64,000 bases of DNA from a virus (Duplodnaviria > Heunggongvirae > Uroviricota > Caudoviricetes), in the IMG/VR virus record IMGVR_UViG_2700989044_000001, positions 11,683 through 75,682 of that record; one strand, given 5' to 3'. This document shows positions 11,607 to 61,560 of the stretch, piece by piece. The position numbers and the translations under genes are program-made. Position 1 is the first letter of the stretch. Each line of letters opens with the position of its first letter. The notes under the pieces are model-generated. The model did no database searches and was not told where the DNA came from. It saw only the letters and a list, made by a program, of their open reading frames with translations.

Positions 11607-12455
11607 ATGAGTCAATTATCAAATCAAGAAAAAGAATATTTAATTTCAAAAGCTCTTGAAACTGAAGAAGGCCGTGTAGCATTAGCTCAAGCAATGGCTA
11701 ACCCAATTCGTGTTTCTCTAGACTACCAAGGTGTAGGTCGTAAACTTTTAGTTGTTGACCCACTACCACAAGGCGCATTACCAGTTTACGATAAAGATGT
11801 TGACGCGAAAGCGTTCGTTATCTCTAAACGTGGTCAAGTACCTGATCAAGTTATCGAAGGTGACAGAATTCAAGTTCCAACTTTCGAAATCGTTTCTTAC
11901 CCACAAGTAAGATTCTCACAAGTTAAAGAGCGTCGTTTCAACGTTATTGACCGTGCTCAACAACGTGCTAAAGCTGATATCATGGCTGTTGAAGATGCTG
12001 AAATCTTCTCACTTTTAGAAGGTGCTGCTACAGCAGTTAACGCAGTTACTATCTCTTCTGGTGGTTTACAACGTGCAGCTTTAACTAAAGCTTTCCAAGA
12101 AGTAGAAAAACATGACTTAGTTGTTACTAAAATCGTTATGAACGCTTCTGCTTTCGCTGATATCCGTGCATGGGGACAAAACGAGTTCGACCCTGTAACT
12201 CAACACGAAGTATTACAAACTGGTTTATTCGGACACATCTGGACTGCAGATATCTTAATCTCTAAGAAAGTTCCTCAAAACACAGTTTATGTACTTGCTG
12301 ATCCTGAATTCGTAGGTGTTATGCCTATCCGTCAAGATATTCAAGTAATTCCAGCTGACAAGCCCGAAGAATTACGTCTCGGCTGGGTAATTTACGAAGA
12401 ATTGGGCCTTGCGGTAGTTAACTCTTTAGCAATTGCTAAAATTTCAATCCAATAA
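11607..12455 (+). CDS. major capsid protein (HK97 fold)
   Basis: 282 aa; capsid-like sequence; strong RBS TAGGAGG; high-expression codon bias; strong terminator downstream. Confidence 0.6.
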   Translation: MSQLSNQEKEYLISKALETEEGRVALAQAMANPIRVSLDYQGVGRKLLVVDPLPQGALPVYDKDVDAKAFVISKRGQVPDQVIEGDRIQVPTFEIVSYPQVRFSQVKERRFNVIDRAQQRAKADIMAVEDAEIFSLLEGAATAVNAVTISSGGLQRAALTKAFQEVEKHDLVVTKIVMNASAFADIRAWGQNEFDPVTQHEVLQTGLFGHIWTADILISKKVPQNTVYVLADPEFVGVMPIRQDIQVIPADKPEELRLGWVIYEELGLAVVNSLAIAKISIQ

Positions 12456-42073: not shown

Positions 42074-44135
42074 GATTACAATGAGAGGAGAAGATGGATT
42101 TTTCCAACTTCACAAAGATAAAGAAGCAGTTGAAGCTTTTAGAAAAGAGCTAGAAACTAAAAAAATTAAATTTAAAGATGTAGAAGAAAAAATCAACTAC
42201 ATGATTAATAACGACTACTACTTTAATGTTTTAGAACAATATACTATGGATCAAATCAAAAAGATTTATTCTACATTGTATGCTTATAACTTTAAATTCC
42301 AATCATATATGGCGATTTCAAAGTTTTATAAAGATTATGCTTTAAAAACAAACGATAAAAAATTCTACTTAGAATCTTATGAAGATCGTATTGCTATTGT
42401 TTCTTTATTCTTAGGACAAGGTAATTTCAATAAAGCAAAAAGTTTAGCTGTTTCTATGATTGAACAAAGATACCAACCAGCTACTCCAACTTTCCTAAAT
42501 GCTGGTAGAAGCAGACGCGGAGAAATGGTTTCTTGTTTCTTATTAGAAATGGATGATAGCTTGAATTCAATTGGTTTCAATATCAATACTGCAATGCAAT
42601 TATCTAAAATTGGCGGCGGCGTTGCCTTAAACCTTTCTAAACTTAGAGGAAGAAAAGAGCAAATTAAAGGTATTGATGATGCTGCTTCTGGAGTAGTACC
42701 AGTTATGAAACTTTTAGAAGATAGCTTCTCTTATGCTAATCAGCTTGGCCAAAGAAAAGGCGCTGGAGCTGTTTACTTAAACATCTTCCACTGGGATATT
42801 ATTGAATTCTTAGATACTAAAAAGATCAATGCTGATGAAAAAGCCAGAATTCAATCTTTATCTATTGGATTAATTGCTGAAAAAATCTTCTTCCAATTAG
42901 CAAAAAGAAACGAAGAAATGTATGTTTTTGCTCCTCACTCGGTTTACAGAGCTTATGGTGAACATTTAGATGACATGGATTTAAATGTTATGTATGATAA
43001 GTTAGTTAAAAACCCAGCTGTTAAGAAACGTAAGTTAAATTTAACTGCTCGCGAAATGCTTATTAAAATTGCTATTATTCAATTAGAATCTGGCTACCCT
43101 TATTTTATGTACAAAACTAACGCTAATGATACTCACGCATTAAAAGATATTGGCCAAGTTAAAATGAGTAATCTTTGTACGGAAATCTTCCAATTACAAG
43201 AGACATCTACTATTAATAACTATGGTACTGATGATGAAATCAAGAGAGATATCAACTGTAATTTAGGTTCATTAAATATTGTTAATGTAATGGAATTAAA
43301 AGCAATTAGAGATTCAGTTCATGCTGGTGTCGAAGCATTAACATCAGTTTCTGATATTACTTCAATTGAAAATGCCCCTACAGTTAAGAAAGCTAATGAT
43401 GAACTTCACGCTATTGGTTTGGGTTCTATGAACTTACACGGATGGTTAGCTAAAAATAAAATTAATTACGAATCTCCTGAAGCTCTAGATTTCGTTAGAA
43501 CTTTCTATATGGCAGTAAACTACTATTCTATTGAGAAAAGTATGATGATCGCTAAAGAAACTGGGGTTAAGTTTAAAGACTTTGAAAGATCAGAATATGC
43601 AAAAGGTACTTATTTTGCTAAATATCTTAAAAACGATTACTCTCCTAGAACTGAAAAAATCAAACAAATGTTTGATGGAATTGAAATTCCTTCTCAATCA
43701 GATTGGGAGAATTTAATGTTTGATGTTAAGAAATATGGTTTATACCATGCTTACCGTCTGGCAACAGCACCAACACAAAGTATTTCTTATATTCAAAATG
43801 CAACGCCAAGTGTTATGCCAATTGTAGATCATATTGAAGCTAGAACATATGCTAACTCTACAACATACTATCCAATGCCTTATTTGTCATTAGATACTTT
43901 CTGGTATTATAAATCAGCATATAATACAAATCAATTTAAATTAATTGACATTATTGCTGAAATGCAAGAACATGTAGACCAAGGTATTAGTACAATTTTA
44001 TATGTAAATAGCGATATTACCACTAGCGAATTAGCTAGATATTATATTTATGCAAGTGAAAAAGGATTAAAGAGTCTTTACTACACTAGAACGAATAATT
44101 TAGGTGTTAACGAATGTGAGACTTGTTCAGTTTAA
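42048..44135 (+). CDS. nrdE: ribonucleoside-diphosphate reductase class Ib alpha subunit
   Basis: Colinear with Bacillus NrdE along its length (NNEIT..KDKEAV...PTFLNAGR...NLCTEI...CETCSV); TTG at 42048 after GAGGTGG, overlapping the nrdI end (ORF-track 41991 start rejected); no intron or intein. Confidence 0.85.
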   Translation: MNHIELNNEITMRGEDGFFQLHKDKEAVEAFRKELETKKIKFKDVEEKINYMINNDYYFNVLEQYTMDQIKKIYSTLYAYNFKFQSYMAISKFYKDYALKTNDKKFYLESYEDRIAIVSLFLGQGNFNKAKSLAVSMIEQRYQPATPTFLNAGRSRRGEMVSCFLLEMDDSLNSIGFNINTAMQLSKIGGGVALNLSKLRGRKEQIKGIDDAASGVVPVMKLLEDSFSYANQLGQRKGAGAVYLNIFHWDIIEFLDTKKINADEKARIQSLSIGLIAEKIFFQLAKRNEEMYVFAPHSVYRAYGEHLDDMDLNVMYDKLVKNPAVKKRKLNLTAREMLIKIAIIQLESGYPYFMYKTNANDTHALKDIGQVKMSNLCTEIFQLQETSTINNYGTDDEIKRDINCNLGSLNIVNVMELKAIRDSVHAGVEALTSVSDITSIENAPTVKKANDELHAIGLGSMNLHGWLAKNKINYESPEALDFVRTFYMAVNYYSIEKSMMIAKETGVKFKDFERSEYAKGTYFAKYLKNDYSPRTEKIKQMFDGIEIPSQSDWENLMFDVKKYGLYHAYRLATAPTQSISYIQNATPSVMPIVDHIEARTYANSTTYYPMPYLSLDTFWYYKSAYNTNQFKLIDIIAEMQEHVDQGISTILYVNSDITTSELARYYIYASEKGLKSLYYTRTNNLGVNECETCSV

Positions 44136-45345: not shown

Positions 45346-45921
45346 ATGAGAAAAAGATGGAATAAAGAAGAAGATAAAGAGTTACTATCATATATTTTAA
45401 AATTCGTAGAAGAAGGAAATTCCTTAAGAGAAGCTGTGAAATTAGCGAGCGAAGAAATTAATAGAACATTTGAATCTTGTTACGCTAGATGGAATAATTT
45501 CCTAAGAATAGAGTATGAAGATCGATTAGAAACAGCAAAGTCATCTGCAAAAGAAAATGGAAATGTCTTTTATGAAAAATGGACTTCAGATGATGATGAA
45601 ATGTTAGCCGATATTATTTTAAATGAAATTAGTAACGGTAGCTCTACTAGAAAGGCGGTCAACGCTTCTGCTAAGAAACTAAATAGATCCTTTACTTCTT
45701 GCTATAATAGATGGCAAACAGTTGTAAGTAAGCGTTTTGAACAAAAATTTGTTTTTAAAGATTGTGAAAATGAAAGTAATAATGACTTAGAAAACTTAAA
45801 AGAAAGATTTTTACTTTTAGAGAATAATTTTCATAATGTTCTAGAACAAAATGAAAAAATTATTGCGCAAAATGAAGAATTATTTAAGATGTTACAAAAA
45901 GAGAAAGGGACTAATAGCTAA
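45346..45921 (+). CDS. RsfA-family (Myb/SANT-like) transcriptional regulator, two repeats
   Basis: RWNKEEDKELL...LREAV...NRTFESCYARWNN and a second WTSDDDEML...NRSFTSCYNRWQT repeat, as in Bacillus prespore regulator RsfA. Confidence 0.6.
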   Translation: MRKRWNKEEDKELLSYILKFVEEGNSLREAVKLASEEINRTFESCYARWNNFLRIEYEDRLETAKSSAKENGNVFYEKWTSDDDEMLADIILNEISNGSSTRKAVNASAKKLNRSFTSCYNRWQTVVSKRFEQKFVFKDCENESNNDLENLKERFLLLENNFHNVLEQNEKIIAQNEELFKMLQKEKGTNS

Positions 45922-45938
45922 TATTAGTCCTTTTTTTA
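45906..45938 (+). terminator. rho-independent terminator overlapping the stop codon
   Basis: GGACTAATA-GC-TAATATTAGTCC followed by T7. Confidence 0.65.
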
Positions 45939-46080
45939 TATAAATTGGTTATTATGTAAAAAATTGACAATAATGTGGATGAGTTTTTTAACTATTTTGT
46001 TAATTTATTATATAATACATGTATACGCAAAGGGGTAAAAACTACGAACGTAGTATAAATTAATGTAGGGGGAGTTTCGT

Positions 46081-46446
46081 TTGTCTAAAAGATGGACAGC
46101 AGAAGAAGATAAATTGTTAGCAGTATTAATGCTAAAATATATACAAGGTGGGGAGAGTGTTAGAAAATCCGCTCTAATTGCTTCAAAAGAAATGAAAAAT
46201 AGAACATATGAAGCATGTTATACAAGATGGACTAAGACTTTAAAAAAGAAAAATGATTCCCCTTTGAAAAAAGAAGATTATGATAAAGCTTTCATAACTT
46301 TAATAATTGATCTTTTTAAAGAAAACCAACTATTGAGTTATAGACTAACTGGGTTAGAAAGAAAATATCAAAAAATAGAGAAAAAAATAGAAATAGAACA
46401 AAAACCAGTTAGAAGAATAGGGTTTCTTATTGAAGAGAATGAATAA
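46081..46446 (+). CDS. RsfA-family (Myb/SANT-like) transcriptional regulator, single repeat
   Basis: RWTAEEDKLL...NRTYEACYTRWTK; TTG start after GGGGGAG. Confidence 0.55.
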   Translation: MSKRWTAEEDKLLAVLMLKYIQGGESVRKSALIASKEMKNRTYEACYTRWTKTLKKKNDSPLKKEDYDKAFITLIIDLFKENQLLSYRLTGLERKYQKIEKKIEIEQKPVRRIGFLIEENE

Positions 46447-48176: not shown

Positions 48177-48440
48177 TATTTGCAGGTTGTAAGTGGAATG
48201 ATAGCCACTAGAATCCATATAGCACAACGAAAACATGAGGTAGCTCCTCATTCGTCTTAGGTGAACCTCCCTGTGCAAAAGAGAGTTTGATTCTCTCCAC
48301 CTGCTCCATATATGTCATCGGTAGTTTAAATAGAATAGGCTTAGATAATCTGCGACCAAAAGATAGTGGACCTAAGTTCTAAGAACAGTCCCATTGTGAT
48401 GGGGAAAGTTAAGGTGCGATTCCTTATCGAGACACCATTC

Positions 48441-48919: not shown

Positions 48920-48997
48920 AGGGGATTAAAGATAATTGGATAATCGTCTGGCCTCCAAAGCCATGATACGCGGGTTCGATTCCTGCATCCCCTGCCA
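48920..48997 (+). tRNA. tRNA-Trp (CCA) candidate with atypical D-arm
   Basis: Acceptor AGGGGAT/ATCCCCT, anticodon loop CTCCAAA identical to Bacillus tRNA-Trp, T-loop GGTTCGATTCC; no clean D-stem pairing found. Confidence 0.5.
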
Positions 48998-49008
48998 TAA
49001 AAACAAAA

Positions 49009-49041
49009 GGAGAATGCTTAATGAAAATTTTTAGCATCGAT
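49009..49041 (+). repeat. 33-nt direct repeat copy 1 (RBS + MKIFSID mini-ORF start)
   Basis: GGAGAATGCTTAATGAAAATTTTTAGCATCGAT; 31/33 identical to copy 2. Confidence 0.8.
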
Positions 49042-49120
49042 ATCATACCAAGCTCATAAGACTATAAATTCCTTGAGGTATCTTATGAGCTTGGTTTTTA
49101 ACTCAAGGAGGTATGATATC

Positions 49121-49399
49121 ATGAAAAACAGAAGTCTTGATTATTATCGTCATCACAGAAAACGTATTATTGCTAGAAAAGTTTATATTTTTACTCATAT
49201 TTGGGGAAATGAATTATTCGAATATGAGAACAGAGACTATAAACCATTTCCAATTGGAAAATATTCAAAAGGAAAAGTACATTGTAGTTGTAAGGTTTGC
49301 AAATATGACAAGCATTTTGAGATTAAAAAACATAAAGTCAAATCAAAAGAACAAGCAATGAAACAAGAAATTGATGATTATTTTAATAATAAAGAATAA
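49121..49399 (+). CDS. hypothetical basic protein with C-x2-C...C-x2-C motif
   Basis: ATG after AAGGAGGTATGATATC (ORF-track 49073 start rejected). Confidence 0.45.
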   Translation: MKNRSLDYYRHHRKRIIARKVYIFTHIWGNELFEYENRDYKPFPIGKYSKGKVHCSCKVCKYDKHFEIKKHKVKSKEQAMKQEIDDYFNNKE

Positions 49400-49438
49400 C
49401 GTTTTACAATTTTCATGTAATAAGTAAAGGAGAATGTT

Positions 49439-49471
49439 TAATGAAAATTTTTAGCATTGATTTTGAACACC
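49439..49471 (+). repeat. 33-nt direct repeat copy 2 (RBS + MKIFSID mini-ORF start)
   Basis: GGAGAATGTTTAATGAAAATTTTTAGCATTGAT. Confidence 0.8.
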
Positions 49472-49504
49472 TTTAGTGAAGTCATAAACTAAAGGAGAAA
49501 TTAT

Positions 49505-49900
49505 ATGTTACAAGAAGAAGTAATTGACATGATCATGGAAGAGATATCTGAGTTCGTAGAAAATTATATTATTATGTCATCATTGATGCAAGATGCTCTT
49601 TATACTGAGGTCGATCCAGGCAAATCAATAAGATTTTTAACTCGTTCCGAAAGATACGGTAGTATTTATTCTGAGGTAAGACATCAAATAATAAAAAGAG
49701 GTAGAACAAGAATTGCATTCAGCTTTAGATTTCTTAAAGAAGAGGCTGATTATGCTATGGAATTAGTTCATTTATTGGAAAGTTATGTTGAATATAGTTT
49801 TGGTAATTATTCAAATCACTATAGTTGCAACTTTGTTTTAGATGTAGGTTCTAAGAAAAATGGTATTGAACTATTTGAAAAAGTTAGTTTCTTAAAATAG
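49505..49900 (+). CDS. hypothetical protein
   Basis: ORF after AAAGGAGAAATTAT. Confidence 0.45.
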   Translation: MLQEEVIDMIMEEISEFVENYIIMSSLMQDALYTEVDPGKSIRFLTRSERYGSIYSEVRHQIIKRGRTRIAFSFRFLKEEADYAMELVHLLESYVEYSFGNYSNHYSCNFVLDVGSKKNGIELFEKVSFLK

Positions 49901-49927
49901 ACAAAATATTTTGTCTATTTTTTTTAT
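49899..49927 (+). terminator. rho-independent terminator
   Basis: TAGACAAAATATTTTGTCTA palindrome followed by T9. Confidence 0.8.
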
Positions 49928-50008
49928 CGTAAAGTTACGAAAAAAGATTTACAATTTTGACTAAATTTGATATAATCTATATATAACATAAAAATAGAGG
50001 GTGATACA

Positions 50009-50202: not shown

Positions 50203-50487
50203 ATGATGGAAAAGAAGCCAAAGAAGCCAAAGTATAAAATGCTAAAAGATTTTAGATTAAAGCTTTTGTTATTTGAAAGCTTAGAAGACAAGCGCATAAA
50301 CTCAATATCAAATATAGATATTTACTATACAAAAGTTAAATCCGGTAAGTTTTTATTTCCATGTAAGAAGAAAATATTAGTTAGACTTACTGTCGAAGAA
50401 GAATTATTTGTTTTAGAATGTATGACAAAAAATTTGGATTTACAAAAACTAACTATGGGATACGAATATGAAATAGAATATAAATGA
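50203..50487 (+). CDS. tandem paralog 1 (EYEIEYK family)
   Basis: Shares the VKSGK...ECMTKNLDLQKL...EYEIEYK core. Confidence 0.5.
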   Translation: MMEKKPKKPKYKMLKDFRLKLLLFESLEDKRINSISNIDIYYTKVKSGKFLFPCKKKILVRLTVEEELFVLECMTKNLDLQKLTMGYEYEIEYK

Positions 50488-50496
50488 GGTTAAATT

Positions 50497-50775
50497 ATGG
50501 TAAATAGGGGTGCGTACGAAAAACTAGCTGATGTACAAATAAAAGGCGGCATCATTAAAGATCTTGTAAAACAAGATATAGAGTCAATATCAGATATAGA
50601 GATTTATCATAAGAAAGTTAAAACTGGTAAACGCTATTTCTCTCGTAAAAAAGACGTAAGAGTTATTAAATTTATTATACGTAGTGAAGAGTTATTTGTT
50701 ATTGAATGTATGACTAAGAACTTAGATTTACAAGAATTAGCAGGCGGAAATGAGTATGAAATAGAATATAAGTGA
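50497..50775 (+). CDS. tandem paralog 2
   Basis: ...VKTGK...ECMTKNLDLQELAGGNEYEIEYK. Confidence 0.5.
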   Translation: MVNRGAYEKLADVQIKGGIIKDLVKQDIESISDIEIYHKKVKTGKRYFSRKKDVRVIKFIIRSEELFVIECMTKNLDLQELAGGNEYEIEYK

Positions 50776-50784
50776 GGGGAAATA

Positions 50785-51069
50785 ATGTCTCAAAGTACAA
50801 CATTCGATGTATTGCATAACGCAGCGATTGAAGCCTTTATTAAAAAGAAAGTTGAAGAAAGAGATTTAAAATCTATATTAGAAGTGGAAGTTCGTTTTAA
50901 ATCAGTTAAAACTGGTAAAAAAGTTTTCTTTTTCTTTTCAAAAAAGAAACAAATAGGTATTGTGAGATTTAAGGTTAATGAAGAGTTGTCTATTATAGAA
51001 CACATGACAAAAGGATTAGATTTTAAAGAATTAGCGGGTAAAAGAGAATATGAAATAATATACGTTTAA
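50785..51069 (+). CDS. tandem paralog 3
   Basis: ...VKTGKK...FKVNEELSIIEHMTKGLDFKELAGKREYEIIYV. Confidence 0.5.
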   Translation: MSQSTTFDVLHNAAIEAFIKKKVEERDLKSILEVEVRFKSVKTGKKVFFFFSKKKQIGIVRFKVNEELSIIEHMTKGLDFKELAGKREYEIIYV

Positions 51070-51093
51070 GAAACAAGCGAGAGGAGAAGAACT

Positions 51094-51393
51094 ATGACTA
51101 AAGGCGAAATGTCTAATAGAGATAAAGTTACTATTTTAAGAAATGCAGCTATTAAATCTTCCGTTAGAAAAAATATTGAACAAAGAGATTTAGAATCCAT
51201 ATTGGAAGTAGAAGTTTGTTTCCAAATAGTTAAAACTGGTGAATACGTTTCACTAGTTGAAAATAGAGATGAAGCAGTAACTATTGTGAGATTTAAAGTC
51301 GATGAAGAATTATCTCTCATAGAGCATATGATAAAGGGATTAGACTTTAAAGAATTAGCGGGTAAAAGAGAATATGAAATAATATATGTTTAA
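51094..51393 (+). CDS. tandem paralog 4
   Basis: ...VKTGE...FKVDEELSLIEHMIKGLDFKELAGKREYEIIYV; 3' ~75 nt about 90% identical to paralog 3. Confidence 0.5.
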   Translation: MTKGEMSNRDKVTILRNAAIKSSVRKNIEQRDLESILEVEVCFQIVKTGEYVSLVENRDEAVTIVRFKVDEELSLIEHMIKGLDFKELAGKREYEIIYV

Positions 51394-51403
51394 GGAGCTT
51401 TTT

Positions 51404-51685
51404 ATGTCTGATAAAAATGATTTCCATAGATTATTTAACAGTTTAGATATACAAAGAATTATGGATACAATTTCAGAGAAAAAATTCAAATCAATATTAG
51501 AAGTAGATATTAATTACAAGAAAATCCCAACGGGTAAAAAATTTCTTTTTTTCCAACGTAAAGAGATGATTTTTATTTTCAAATTTAAAGTTAATGAAGA
51601 GCTTTCAATTATTGAGCATATGACAAAAGGCTTGAATTTCCAAGAATTAACAAAAGGTTGTAAGTATGAAATAGAATATGTATGA
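51404..51685 (+). CDS. tandem paralog 5
   Basis: ...IPTGKK...FKVNEELSIIEHMTKGLNFQELTKGCKYEIEYV; ATG after AAGGAG. Confidence 0.5.
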   Translation: MSDKNDFHRLFNSLDIQRIMDTISEKKFKSILEVDINYKKIPTGKKFLFFQRKEMIFIFKFKVNEELSIIEHMTKGLNFQELTKGCKYEIEYV

Positions 51686-51986
51686 GGTGTTTAAATTGCC
51701 TAACGATAAAGAGATAGATGAATTCTATTTTAGTGCTATTCATTTTTTGATGGAACATTCAGTTAGAGAAGGTCCATTTAAAAGTATTGAAAAGGTAGAA
51801 GTAATAAGTAAAGAATTTAAATATACAAGGTTTTGTTTCACTCTCAAGAAATCTGTAACAGTTGTTAAGTTTGTTGTAAATGAAAGTATACTTGTTGCTG
51901 AAACTTTAATGAATAATTTAAATATTGAGAATTTCTTGAATTCTATATGTGGAAAGGAATACAAATGGGAAATTGAGTATATTTAA
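51678..51986 (+). CDS. tandem paralog 6 (divergent)
   Basis: Divergent but ends KFVVNES...GKEYKWEIEYI. Confidence 0.45.
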   Translation: MYEVFKLPNDKEIDEFYFSAIHFLMEHSVREGPFKSIEKVEVISKEFKYTRFCFTLKKSVTVVKFVVNESILVAETLMNNLNIENFLNSICGKEYKWEIEYI

Positions 51987-60232: not shown

Positions 60233-61069
60233 GTGAGCAACGCAGATATACAATATAATAAATTAGTATCTAACATTCTATTAAATGGATTGTGGGATAA
60301 AGATCAAGAAGTAAGAACAAGATGGAAAGATGGTACCTCAGCTTACTCTAAAAGTATAATAGGGGCTCAGTTTAAATTTGATAATTCTGAAGTTCCAATT
60401 CTTACAACAAAAGAAGTAAAATGGGAAGCTGCTATTAAAGAAATCTTATGGATTTGGAAACAAAAAAGCAATGTAGTGCAAGATTTAAAAGATGTTGGTG
60501 TAAATATTTGGAATGATTGGGAATTAGCTGATGGCACTATTGGTAAAGCGTATGGGTATCAACTTGGCAAAAAATGTTTAAATTTAAATGGCGAAAAAGT
60601 AGATCAAGTTGATTATTTATTACACAATTTAAAAAACACTCCCGCTTCCAGACGACACATTACTACATTATGGTCTATAGAAGATTTAAATGATATGAGT
60701 TTAACTCCTTGTGTTTGGAAAACTCAGTGGTTTGTAAAACAAAATAAATTGCATTTAATTGTAGAAGCTCGTTCGAGTGATACAGGTTTAGGGTTACCAT
60801 TTAATATCTTTCAATACAATGTTCTACAGAGAGTATTTGCTCAAGTTTTAGGTTATGAATTAGGCGATTATGTTTTCAACATTGGGGATGCCCATATCTA
60901 CGAAAGACATATTGAACCTTTAACTTCTCAATTGGAATTACCTCAACATGATGTTCCAACTTTATGGATTAATCCAGAAAAGAAGAACTTTTACGATTTT
61001 GACATATCAGATTTCAAATTAATTGGTTACGAGCATGGTCCTTTCATTAGATTACCAATAGCTATTTAG
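60233..61069 (+). CDS. thyA: thymidylate synthase (ThyA family; uracil-type Asn retained, His after catalytic Cys replaced by Val)
   Basis: TLWSIEDLNDMSLTPCVW catalytic Cys region; GLGLPFNIFQY (N of the dUMP-specific LPFN); GTG start after AAGGAGGATGAATA. Confidence 0.75.
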   Translation: MSNADIQYNKLVSNILLNGLWDKDQEVRTRWKDGTSAYSKSIIGAQFKFDNSEVPILTTKEVKWEAAIKEILWIWKQKSNVVQDLKDVGVNIWNDWELADGTIGKAYGYQLGKKCLNLNGEKVDQVDYLLHNLKNTPASRRHITTLWSIEDLNDMSLTPCVWKTQWFVKQNKLHLIVEARSSDTGLGLPFNIFQYNVLQRVFAQVLGYELGDYVFNIGDAHIYERHIEPLTSQLELPQHDVPTLWINPEKKNFYDFDISDFKLIGYEHGPFIRLPIAI

Positions 61070-61080
61070 GAGGGTAAGAT

Positions 61081-61560
61081 TTGATTAATTTAATAGTAGC
61101 TTTAGATAAAAATAATCTAATAGGTAAAGATAATGACCTCCCTTGGCGTTTGCCTAGAGATTTACAGTACTTTAAGTCAAGAACTTTAAATAGTCCTATT
61201 GTTATGGGTAGAAAAACTTTCCAATCGCTTCCAGGTTTGTTACCAGATAGACAACATGTCATTTTAACGAAAAGTGGATATGCTGTAAGAACGCCAAGAG
61301 CTGAATCTCATTCTTCAGTTGAAAGTGTATTAGAAAAATTTAAAGACAAAGATATATACGTAATTGGTGGTTCTGAAATCTTTAATTTGTTTTTATCTTA
61401 TGTAGATAGAATGTATGTTACTTACATCGATGAAGAATTCGAAGGAGATACTTATTTTCCAGATGTTTTAGATAATTGGAAAATGGTATCTAATGAAAAA
61501 GGGATAAAAGACGACAAAAACCCTTATGATTATTACTTTAGAGTATATGAAAAAAAATAA
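61081..61560 (+). CDS. dfrA: dihydrofolate reductase
   Basis: LIVALDKNNLIGKDNDLPWRLPRDLQYFK...IVMGRKTF...YVIGG; TTG start after TAGGAGGGTAAGA. Confidence 0.8.
   Translation: MINLIVALDKNNLIGKDNDLPWRLPRDLQYFKSRTLNSPIVMGRKTFQSLPGLLPDRQHVILTKSGYAVRTPRAESHSSVESVLEKFKDKDIYVIGGSEIFNLFLSYVDRMYVTYIDEEFEGDTYFPDVLDNWKMVSNEKGIKDDKNPYDYYFRVYEKK

Follow-up and report, generated by a model that had tools for sequence, protein, structure and literature searches.

Two consecutive genes of Bacillus phage G, gp99 (49121..49399) and gp100 (49505..49900), are each preceded by a copy of the same short direct repeat, which carries a Shine-Dalgarno (SD) sequence and the beginning of a very short upstream open reading frame (uORF). 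Both genes, both copies and all leader features given below lie on the + strand of the window analysed here, a stretch of 64,000 nucleotides corresponding to positions 11,683 to 75,682 of the IMG/VR record IMGVR_UViG_2700989044_000001. Between 48400 and 50200 the window is 100% identical to the phage G genome (JN638751.1; 497,513 bp), and window coordinates are obtained by subtracting 11,682 from the coordinates of that record. The gene pair belongs to the tail of a tRNA cluster in which ARAGORN identifies Cys, Asp, Phe, Tyr, Glu, Thr and Ser tRNAs; tRNA-Ser is followed in order by tRNA-Trp, gp99, gp100, an A/U-rich palindrome with a T-run and a sigma-70-like promoter. Comparison across the gp99 gene family shows that copy 1 of the repeat is native and forms the 5' module of a cis-regulatory mRNA leader conserved in that family.

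Two copies of a repeat with an SD sequence and a mini-ORF

The core of the repeat is a 33-mer, GGAGAATG[C/T]TTAATGAAAATTTTTAGCAT[C/T]GAT, of which the window contains exactly two instances, one at 49009-49041 and one at 49429-49461. The copies are identical at 31 of 33 positions, as stated in the original prediction, which had however placed the second at 49439-49471; dinucleotide-preserving shuffles gave no match (0/100). The repeat scan extends the similarity to 44 nt (copy 1, 48998..49041; copy 2, 49418..49461; 89% identity, repeat family D9), beyond which it ends abruptly after codon 7 of the uORF. Divergence amounts to 2 positions in the 33-nt core versus 3 in the 11 nt that precede it. 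The core differences, a C/T in the spacer between SD and AUG and a synonymous Ile change from ATC to ATT, are both predicted to be functionally silent.

The copies flank gp99 directly and lie 420 bp apart. In each, AAAGGAG stands 8 nt before an ATG (SD1 at 49006-12 and AUG at 49021 in copy 1; 49426-32 and 49441 in copy 2) and the repeat then supplies uORF codons 1-7. The ribosome-binding site and the ORF of 11-12 codons claimed earlier for each copy can be read directly in the sequence: uORF1 (MKIFSIDIIPSS, 12 codons, 49021..49059) ends with TAA at 49057-59, and uORF2 (MKIFSIDFEHL, 11 codons, 49441..49476) ends with TAG at 49474-76. The real genes expected downstream at 49121 and 49505 are gp99, whose start follows the uORF1 stop by 61 nt, and gp100, whose start follows the uORF2 stop by 28 nt. 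It is rare for a phage G gene to be preceded by a mini-ORF with a GGAG SD and an ATG: among 281 genes there are 7 such mini-ORFs, uORF1 and uORF2 included.

The suggestion that the cassette is reused across the genome did not hold. There is no third copy of the 33-mer at up to 7 mismatches on either strand of the whole 497,513-bp genome, and a degenerate SD plus MKIFSID pattern returned 0 matches in IMG/VR and 0 in JGI metagenomes. A genome with only these two copies had been named as a finding that would speak against the idea of a regulatory cassette, and this is literally what was found. It does not overturn the idea, because the conservation lies in other genomes and not elsewhere in phage G. 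Inside the repeat (49014-49037; 49434-49457), AUGCU and AGCAU could pair over 5 bp to form a hairpin whose loop holds the uORF AUG; the copy 2 version, AUGUU/AGCAU, gains one A:U pair, and both substitutions between the copies fit the hairpin, as judged from two sequences only.

Architecture of the gp99 leader

The RNA from 48998 to 49125 folds with a minimum free energy (MFE) of -33.7 kcal/mol (z = -4.4), and none of 200 shuffles was as low. The hairpin originally described after copy 1 is real and is larger than the 11 bp claimed for it, comprising a 14-bp perfect stem with a 19-nt loop, P2, and a 9-bp outer helix, P1. The 5' arm of P2 (CCAAGCTCATAAGA, RNA CCAAGCUCAUAAGA; 49048..49061; columns 31-46 of A2, the family alignment described below) holds the stop codon of uORF1. 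Its 3' arm (TCTTATGAGCTTGG, RNA UCUUAUGAGCUUGG; 49081..49094), placed by the MFE fold and by family covariation, is followed by five U (49095-99). In P1, uORF1 codons 7-9 (GATATCATA, RNA GAUAUCAUA; 49039..49047) pair with a 3' arm (TATGATATC, RNA UAUGAUAUC; 49112..49120) that fills the spacer between SD2, the main SD of gp99, and the gp99 AUG; this duplex, seen in the MFE fold and in the family duplexes, reaches -10.1 kcal/mol (z = -1.9). A complement to the main SD region lies in the loop of P2, where RNAduplex identifies an anti-SD (TCCTTGAG, RNA UCCUUGAG; 49070..49077) that is perfectly complementary to CTCAAGGA (RNA CUCAAGGA, 49102-09) and forms a duplex of -13.5 kcal/mol (z = -4.0). The SD2 region itself (CTCAAGGAGG; 49102..49111) contains AGG/GGAG columns that are nearly invariant in A2. 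Among 281 phage G genes the global SD accessibility of gp99 is unremarkable, the unusual property being the local anti-SD complementarity only.

A covariance model built from A2, R1, finds one full instance in the phage G genome, which is the gp99 leader, with a score of 62.1 bits that follows by construction as this leader sits in the seed alignment. Rfam 15 gave no match to the leader at E <= 1, with only tRNAs reported between positions 44000 and 54000, and gave no leader match in 7 homologous loci.

gp99 and its protein family

gp99 is a protein of 92 aa with a basic N-terminal helix and the motif KGKxHCSCxxC, delineated with the family alignments A1, A3 and A4. It has no match in Pfam or NCBIfam, and its sole match is phrog_4499, a family of unknown function. 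A profile search with the gp99 family retrieved 1,322 proteins, every one of them named 'hypothetical', and family members share the basic N-terminus and the invariant motif (H-C-x-C-x-x-C). An AlphaFold2 model of gp99 is helical with a long predicted N-terminal helix and is of low confidence (predicted local distance difference test score, pLDDT, 68.7; predicted template modelling score, pTM, 0.38).

Homologues were located at 174 loci in bacterial contigs sampled at one genome per species. The 80 of these that were retrieved span Bacillaceae, Planococcaceae, Paenibacillaceae, Thermoactinomycetaceae and Clostridia, with Lysinibacillus, Sporosarcina, Psychrobacillus, Bacillus, Cytobacillus, Paenibacillus, Brevibacillus and Thermoflavimicrobium among the genera and many Clostridia (Oscillospiraceae, Flavonifractor, Ruminococcus, Lachnospiraceae). 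Homologues with the same leader layout were also found in two prophage-like IMG/VR contigs and in two metagenomic contigs, L017 and L102, in which they are 61% and 56% identical to gp99. L017 is clearly related to phage G because it also has a close gp89 homologue; L102 is probably related as well. The homologue adjoins tRNA genes in both metagenomic contigs, and in phages the gp99-type gene sits within tRNA clusters. The genomic neighbourhoods of gp99 homologues are unrelated to each other, and leader and gene always occur together.

Two further observations concern the limits of the gene and of its cassette. GenBank gp99 (49073-49399; record 60755-61081) begins at a TTG at 49073 inside the P2 loop and is 108 aa long. 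The homologues and the PHROG alignment all begin at the equivalent of ATG 49121 (MKNRS...), which has AAGGAGG 9 nt upstream, and the annotation probably adds 16 codons too many at the start of gp99; the same is probably true of the metagenomic homologue P0002 (L017:307 versus 352). At Lysinibacillus-type loci, leader and gene form a cassette between two copies of a terminator-like hairpin, GCTGTAGCG...CGCTGCGGCTTTTT, found at 2845-2880 and 3290-3320 in L012 and also in L013, L022, L027, L030, L033, L035, L036, L039 and L101. The presence of the same hairpin on both sides suggests that the whole unit moves as a cassette.

Conservation of the leader

Leaders were examined in the 170 nt 5' of each homologue at 80 of the 174 bacterial loci. 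The layout of phage G recurs at nearly every one of them, and approximately 80 Bacillota and phage loci have it upstream of a gp99 homologue. An SD and an ATG, GTG or TTG lie 8-20 codons before an in-frame conserved stop at 73 of 79 loci, compared with 0/79 and 1/79 in the other frames. All loci keep this frame open over 11 or more codons, as against 46% and 73% for the other two. The uORF is typically 12-16 codons long with a mode of 14 (50/73), and its stop codon occupies a fixed alignment position within the 5' arm of a P2 of 14-16 bp. RNAalifold on A2, which contains 80 sequences, returns P2 as 16 pairs and shows compensatory changes at 15 of these. When P2 and the five core anti-SD:SD pairs are counted together, 92.0% of alignment cells are paired; the figure for shuffles is 76.8%, with 0/500 as high, and sliding the 3' partners lowers it to 37-60%. 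The covariation score is 0.546 versus 0.262. The five core pairs taken separately are paired in 88.7% of cells, and four of them covary. Duplexes between the loop anti-SD and the SD region have a mean z of -2.65 across the family, with 84% of sequences below -1.64, and P1 duplexes between the uORF interior and the SD or spacer have a mean z of -2.41. The arms of P1 are wholly different between clades and still complementary (GATATCATA/TATGATATC, TATCAGC/GCTGATA, TTGCCATCA/TGATGGCAA, CGTCATACC/GGTATGACG, CAATATCAA/TTGATATTG).

No conservation of the uORF peptide was found across the family beyond the residues encoded by the stem. Among phage-G-like contigs the peptide is MKIFSIDIIPSS in phage G, MQKIYFSHDTPTLCL, which is somewhat similar, in L017 and MNQRKHNPNIKTRCLRG, which is dissimilar, in L102. 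What selection retains is therefore not a given peptide but the existence of a uORF of suitable length and placement that overlaps P1 and P2. The comparison also bears on an explanation in which the repeat acts at the level of DNA, as a regulator site or as a target for recombination or homing formed by the imperfect palindrome ATGCT-N14-AGCAT, with the ORFs coincidental. A 5-bp inverted repeat does lie inside the repeated block, and direct repeats around a gene could mediate its deletion or exchange. Yet phage G has just two such sites in 497 kb and no recombinase or endonuclease gene is adjacent, and in other genomes the same positions hold unrelated sequence in which SD, start and frame are kept, pointing to a function in translation. 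We consider action at the DNA level very improbable.

The P2 hairpin lends itself to another reading, that of a leader-peptide transcription attenuator in which P2 and UUUUU form the intrinsic terminator of the tRNA operon and a ribosome on uORF1 blocks it, allowing read-through into gp99. In phage G the 14-bp stem followed by five U, the uORF stop in its 5' arm and the position of the leader directly after the last tRNA of the cluster all agree with this. The U-run is however not conserved, most of the 80 aligned leaders having GUUUCU, CCUUAU or nothing comparable after P2, and since it is absent from most family members P2 is, judging by its sequence, not primarily a transcription terminator. 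In addition, the 19-nt loop is large for a terminator, a simple terminator scan did not call P2, leader 2 has no terminator, and the conserved geometry of anti-SD, SD and P1 points to translational control. Antitermination by a ribosome is also disfavoured by the fact that in Bacillus transcription runs largely uncoupled from translation. An attenuator of this type appears quite unlikely; it may operate in phage G but is not a property of the family.

Somewhat less unlikely, though still improbable in our estimation, is that P2 is a protein operator, most simply one through which gp99 represses its own translation, the uORF being secondary and the 44-nt repeat without regulatory meaning. Near-invariant positions of P2 go beyond the needs of pairing (G35:C85, C36:G84, U38:A82, G39:C81 and A41:U79, or GC-YUG-UAR/…CAGGC), gp99 is small and very basic with an arginine-rich predicted N-terminal helix and an invariant H-C-x-C-x-x-C (zinc knuckle), and leader and gene stay together in otherwise unrelated contexts. 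The invariant nucleotides nevertheless include the uORF stop and the preceding Leu codon and are equally explained by the uORF, and an operator leaves the strict conservation of SD1, start and open frame (73/79 versus 0-1/79) unexplained. The protein model is of low confidence, and RNA binding by gp99 is putative. An operator mechanism and control by the uORF may coexist.

Two ways of joining uORF and gene were considered. A frameshift fusion of the uORF with gp99 is rejected because the frame offset varies, the distances of 49-73 nt not being constant modulo 3. Read-through of the stop is not supported as a family signal: at just 53% of loci is the next in-frame stop close to the main SD, and at 33% it falls in the hairpin loop or 3' arm. 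In phage G, read-through of the UAA that ends uORF1 would bring the ribosome to a second in-frame UAA (49099-101), immediately 5' of the gp99 SD region; the phage is also annotated with a 'tRNA-other' with anticodon UUA, which would read UAA (JN638751.1 411932-412006; L009 37033-37107). A natural variant is found in L104 (2391-2486), and likewise in L105 and L106, where the usual uORF stop is CAA and a 31-codon uORF runs through the whole of P2 and ends with a TGA that precedes the main SD region by 3 nt. The opposite-strand neighbour gene in L104 encodes an RNase R-like protein with RNB and S1 domains. The variant would keep the logic of the leader and fits the idea of coupling. We found no description of the leader or of the protein family in a literature search of incomplete coverage; neither the leader family nor its protein family is in Rfam 15, Pfam or NCBIfam.

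Copy 2 and the gp100 leader

Copy 2 starts 19 nt past the stop codon of gp99 and consists of SD1 and codons 1-7 only, followed by unrelated sequence; R1 has no match there and P2 is absent. In the MFE fold the stop of uORF2 falls inside an anti-SD (CCTTTAGT, RNA CCUUUAGU; 49470..49477) that pairs with ACTAAAGG (RNA ACUAAAGG, 49488-95), a segment including the gp100 SD. This 8-bp duplex has an energy of -10.4 kcal/mol (z = -3.6) that was reached by 2 of 1000 shuffles and that, among 281 phage G genes compared in the same window geometry, ranks within the top 3.6%. Placing a ribosome footprint on the distal part of uORF2 lifts the predicted accessibility of the gp100 SD from 0.23 to 0.84-0.92. 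gp100 (131 aa) is an ORFan unrelated to gp99. It has no homologue in GenBank phages, in IMG/VR (spurious 18-aa matches only) or in a set of 5.8 billion proteins, and no Pfam, NCBIfam or functional PHROG match. Paralogy of gp99 and gp100 through a tandem duplication is ruled out, the proteins being unrelated. The leader-peptide or translational-coupling cassette of the original prediction is therefore backed at copy 1 by comparative evidence, in the form of the conserved covarying leader, and at copy 2 by folding predictions, which make a regulatory function of leader 2 a candidate.

Copy 2 might instead be a non-functional recombination scar in which the overlap of uORF2 and anti-SD is accidental, a possibility that we take seriously and nonetheless doubt. 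A tandem duplication of leader and gp99 followed by a deletion fusing uORF codon 7 to the region upstream of gp100 would generate it, as would an ectopic recombination or insertion leaving 44-nt direct repeats. The existence of two copies only, so close together on either side of gp99, and the abrupt end of homology after codon 7 are in keeping with such an origin, and the high identity of the copies suggests a recent event. The full-leader covariance model does not recognise copy 2, conservation cannot be shown for an ORFan, and the global SD accessibility of gp100 is ordinary (37th percentile of 281 phage G genes). The Lysinibacillus-type cassettes, flanked as they are by direct repeats of a terminator hairpin, also fit a mobile cassette. 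On the other hand, copy 2 retains an intact SD, AUG and reading frame, both of its core substitutions are silent, and its core diverges less (2/33) than the 11 nt before it (3/11). The new 3' part, moreover, places the stop in an anti-SD:SD helix of a strength that few phage G genes or shuffles attain.

Genomic setting

tRNA-Trp (anticodon CCA; 48921..48997, + strand), whose 3' CCA directly adjoins copy 1, is annotated as G_98 in JN638751.1. It was missed by ARAGORN and scores only 37 bits with the Rfam tRNA model, and may be an atypical tRNA. Directly 3' of gp100, the repeat scan (I25) and the sequence identify an A/U-rich perfect palindrome followed by a T-run (49894..49925, + strand), which is likely to be the predicted end of a transcription unit running from the tRNAs through gp99 to gp100. 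A strong sigma-70-like promoter lies at 49948-49976 in front of gp101. Its -35 region is the 11-mer TTTACAATTTT (49948-49958), which also occurs just 5' of copy 2 at 49403-49413 without a -10 box after it.

Other features of the surrounding region may be recorded here. A 30-nt sequence, GTTTGATTCTCTCCACCTGCTCCATATATG, at 48285-48314 resembles the T-arm and acceptor end of the nearby tRNAs (repeat family D6). No tRNA is called there by ARAGORN or by Rfam, and the sequence, which lies between gp95 and tRNA-Ser, may be what is left of a decayed tRNA gene. Downstream, 50203-51986 is a tandem array of six paralogous genes, gp102-gp107, encoding proteins of ~92-102 aa, in which 113-nt C-terminal segments recur every ~290-320 nt (D1, D2, D11, D14) and end in ...EYEIEYK/V. 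Upstream, the adjacent genes gp84 and gp85 (45352-46235) encode RsfA-family transcription factors and have internal repeats D3 and D4 in common; a third RsfA-family gene, gp631, lies elsewhere in the genome.

Discussion

The reading that we favour, and to which we attach a probability of roughly 60%, is that a conserved uORF leader controls gp99 and that copy 2 is a local partial duplication coupling gp100. The leader comprises, in order, SD and start, a uORF of 12-16 codons, P1, P2 with the uORF stop, and the loop anti-SD. The main SD and AUG would be masked by P1 or by the loop anti-SD, and the position and dwell time of a ribosome on the uORF would set which masking helix forms. The SD is predicted to be most open with a ribosome on uORF codons ~3-8, when the 5' arm of P1 is covered and P2 is intact, and to be masked again with a ribosome at the stop, when the loop anti-SD would be freed from P2 and capture the SD. 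P2 and the loop anti-SD:SD helix are treated as alternatives because a 6-7-nt linker hardly spans a helix of 14-16 bp; a simple H-type pseudoknot containing both was considered and is, by the same reasoning, sterically doubtful. Translation of gp99 would depend on translation of the uORF or on pausing within it. Alternatively, ribosomes that have just unwound the helices may provide efficient coupling. Such an architecture would approach that of a cat/erm-type translation attenuator with a second, fail-safe anti-SD. At copy 2, a ribosome finishing uORF2 would unmask the gp100 SD, and both genes would then rely on the same upstream initiation site. The duplicated module coincides exactly with the stretch of the uORF on which a pausing ribosome would exert its effect, and gp99 and gp100 would therefore respond to the same event.

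Several points weigh against this reading, and the mechanism as a whole is one that we infer from sequence and folding. Nested folding across the family gives a main SD accessibility of 0.20 for the free RNA, a maximum of 0.32-0.37 with a ribosome on codons ~3-8 and 0.17-0.19 with a ribosome at the stop. The main SD is therefore largely paired at every ribosome position, and the ON state and its trigger are not explained. In leader 1 of phage G, footprint masking does not open the SD, the accessibility going from 0.56 to 0.30-0.39. The variability of the uORF peptide argues against a specific nascent-peptide arrest motif, and the GC-YUG-UAR positions of P2, conserved beyond the needs of pairing, could be a protein-binding site. 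For the second leader, the ordinary global accessibility of the gp100 SD counts in the same direction, gp100 as an ORFan offers no homologues for comparison, and the 44-nt repeat could be the remnant of a duplication followed by a deletion.

A wider proposal, which we advance tentatively and think less likely to be correct than the control of gp99 by its leader, is that the leader class is a widespread ribosome-sensing riboregulator in Bacillota. In this proposal the uORF would report the kinetics of elongation or termination by toggling two anti-SD helices and would control a small, basic protein with a zinc knuckle, whose own target may be RNA or the ribosome. Phage G would have copied the sensor (SD and 7 codons) onto a new expression platform and so brought an orphan gene under the same signal, a natural case of riboregulator module shuffling. 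If the favoured reading is true, the phage G repeat points to a large family of cis-regulatory leaders that is unannotated in Rfam 15, Pfam and NCBIfam, is composed of a uORF, a covarying hairpin and two anti-SD elements, and fronts more than 1,300 uncharacterised small zinc-knuckle proteins in Bacilli and Clostridia and in the phages of both. Gram-positive bacteria would thereby gain a new and easily tested case of translation controlled by ribosomes, and the switching condition would give a handle on the function of the gp99 family. It would also show how a phage, by duplicating no more than the module for initiation and sensing, can bring the orphan gene next door under shared control.

Among known systems, the closest likeness is to the translation attenuators of the cat-86/cmlA and ermC types. 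Like the gp99 leader, these have a short leader ORF with its own strong SD, and the position of the ribosome on the leader ORF is expected to set downstream opening. As in both phage G leaders, according to our computational and comparative results, the downstream SD or spacer is masked by a helix to which the 3' part of the leader ORF contributes the 5' arm. The cat-type layout of Lovett and colleagues is said to be a single long helix with the leader stop within its 5' arm, which the single long helix of the gp99 leader, with its stop in the 5' arm, resembles. The differences are that the gp99 leader has an extra anti-SD in the hairpin loop, that no IFVI-type or +x+ arrest motif is common to the gp99-family uORFs and that gp99 and gp100 match no family of resistance determinants (rRNA methylase, acetyltransferase, efflux pump or ABC-F). 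The peptide ErmCL starts MGIFSIFVI (PMC5915450), with which MKIFSIDII of uORF1 has 6 of 9 residues in common; IFVI is absent, and the resemblance is most likely coincidental. The gp99 leader shows no homology in sequence or structure to any Rfam leader.

Short uORFs that sense translation stress include the vmlR leader of B. subtilis (PMC9226507), toiL upstream of topAI-yjhQ in E. coli (PMC12121999) and the candidate uORFC-6-1 upstream of hflX in Bacillales (PMC8632094). All resemble the gp99 leader in placing a short uORF with loose peptide conservation within a conserved RNA structure before a single gene, and in the proposal that regulation operates through ribosome pausing on the uORF. They differ in RNA family and in the family of the downstream gene, and several are reported to act on transcription termination or Rho, whereas the gp99 leader is predicted to work by SD masking without a conserved terminator. 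Attenuators of the trp/his type likewise have a conserved intrinsic terminator, which the gp99-family leader lacks (phage G has a U5 run, most of the 80 aligned leaders have no U-run), and a run of regulatory codons for one amino acid that is absent from the gp99-family uORFs. The uORF peptides are not consistently enriched in any amino acid; the phage G peptide has 4 Ile, other members do not.

Leader 2 calls for other comparisons. The gp99 leader has all three features of the R1 class, namely P2 with a stop in its 5' arm, an in-frame SD-uORF, and a loop anti-SD with P1, whereas the gp100 leader falls outside it, sharing the 44 nt only and having its own simple anti-SD:SD hairpin. In classic translational coupling, known from RNA phages and polycistronic operons, an upstream ribosome unfolds a hairpin that masks an SD. 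Leader 2 conforms to this in that its upstream ORF ends in the anti-SD arm, 28 nt before the next start, with release of the SD predicted; it departs from it in that the upstream ORF is an 11-codon mini-ORF from a partial duplication and not a real gene. Phage genomes also contain mobile gene cassettes such as 'morons' and the PeSL-flanked cassettes of T4-like phages. The gp99 cassettes are similar in that a small gene with its own signals lies between short direct repeats, of 44 nt in phage G and of terminator hairpins in the Lysinibacillus type. They are unlike them in that the phage G repeat is a translation initiation region and not a promoter or terminator stem-loop, and mobility is hypothetical. 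Control of SD masking by a uORF or leader peptide is thus a kind of system already known, here fronting a protein family that, like the leader, is absent from the searched libraries, and the partial duplication of a leader module onto a second gene gives it an unusual twist.

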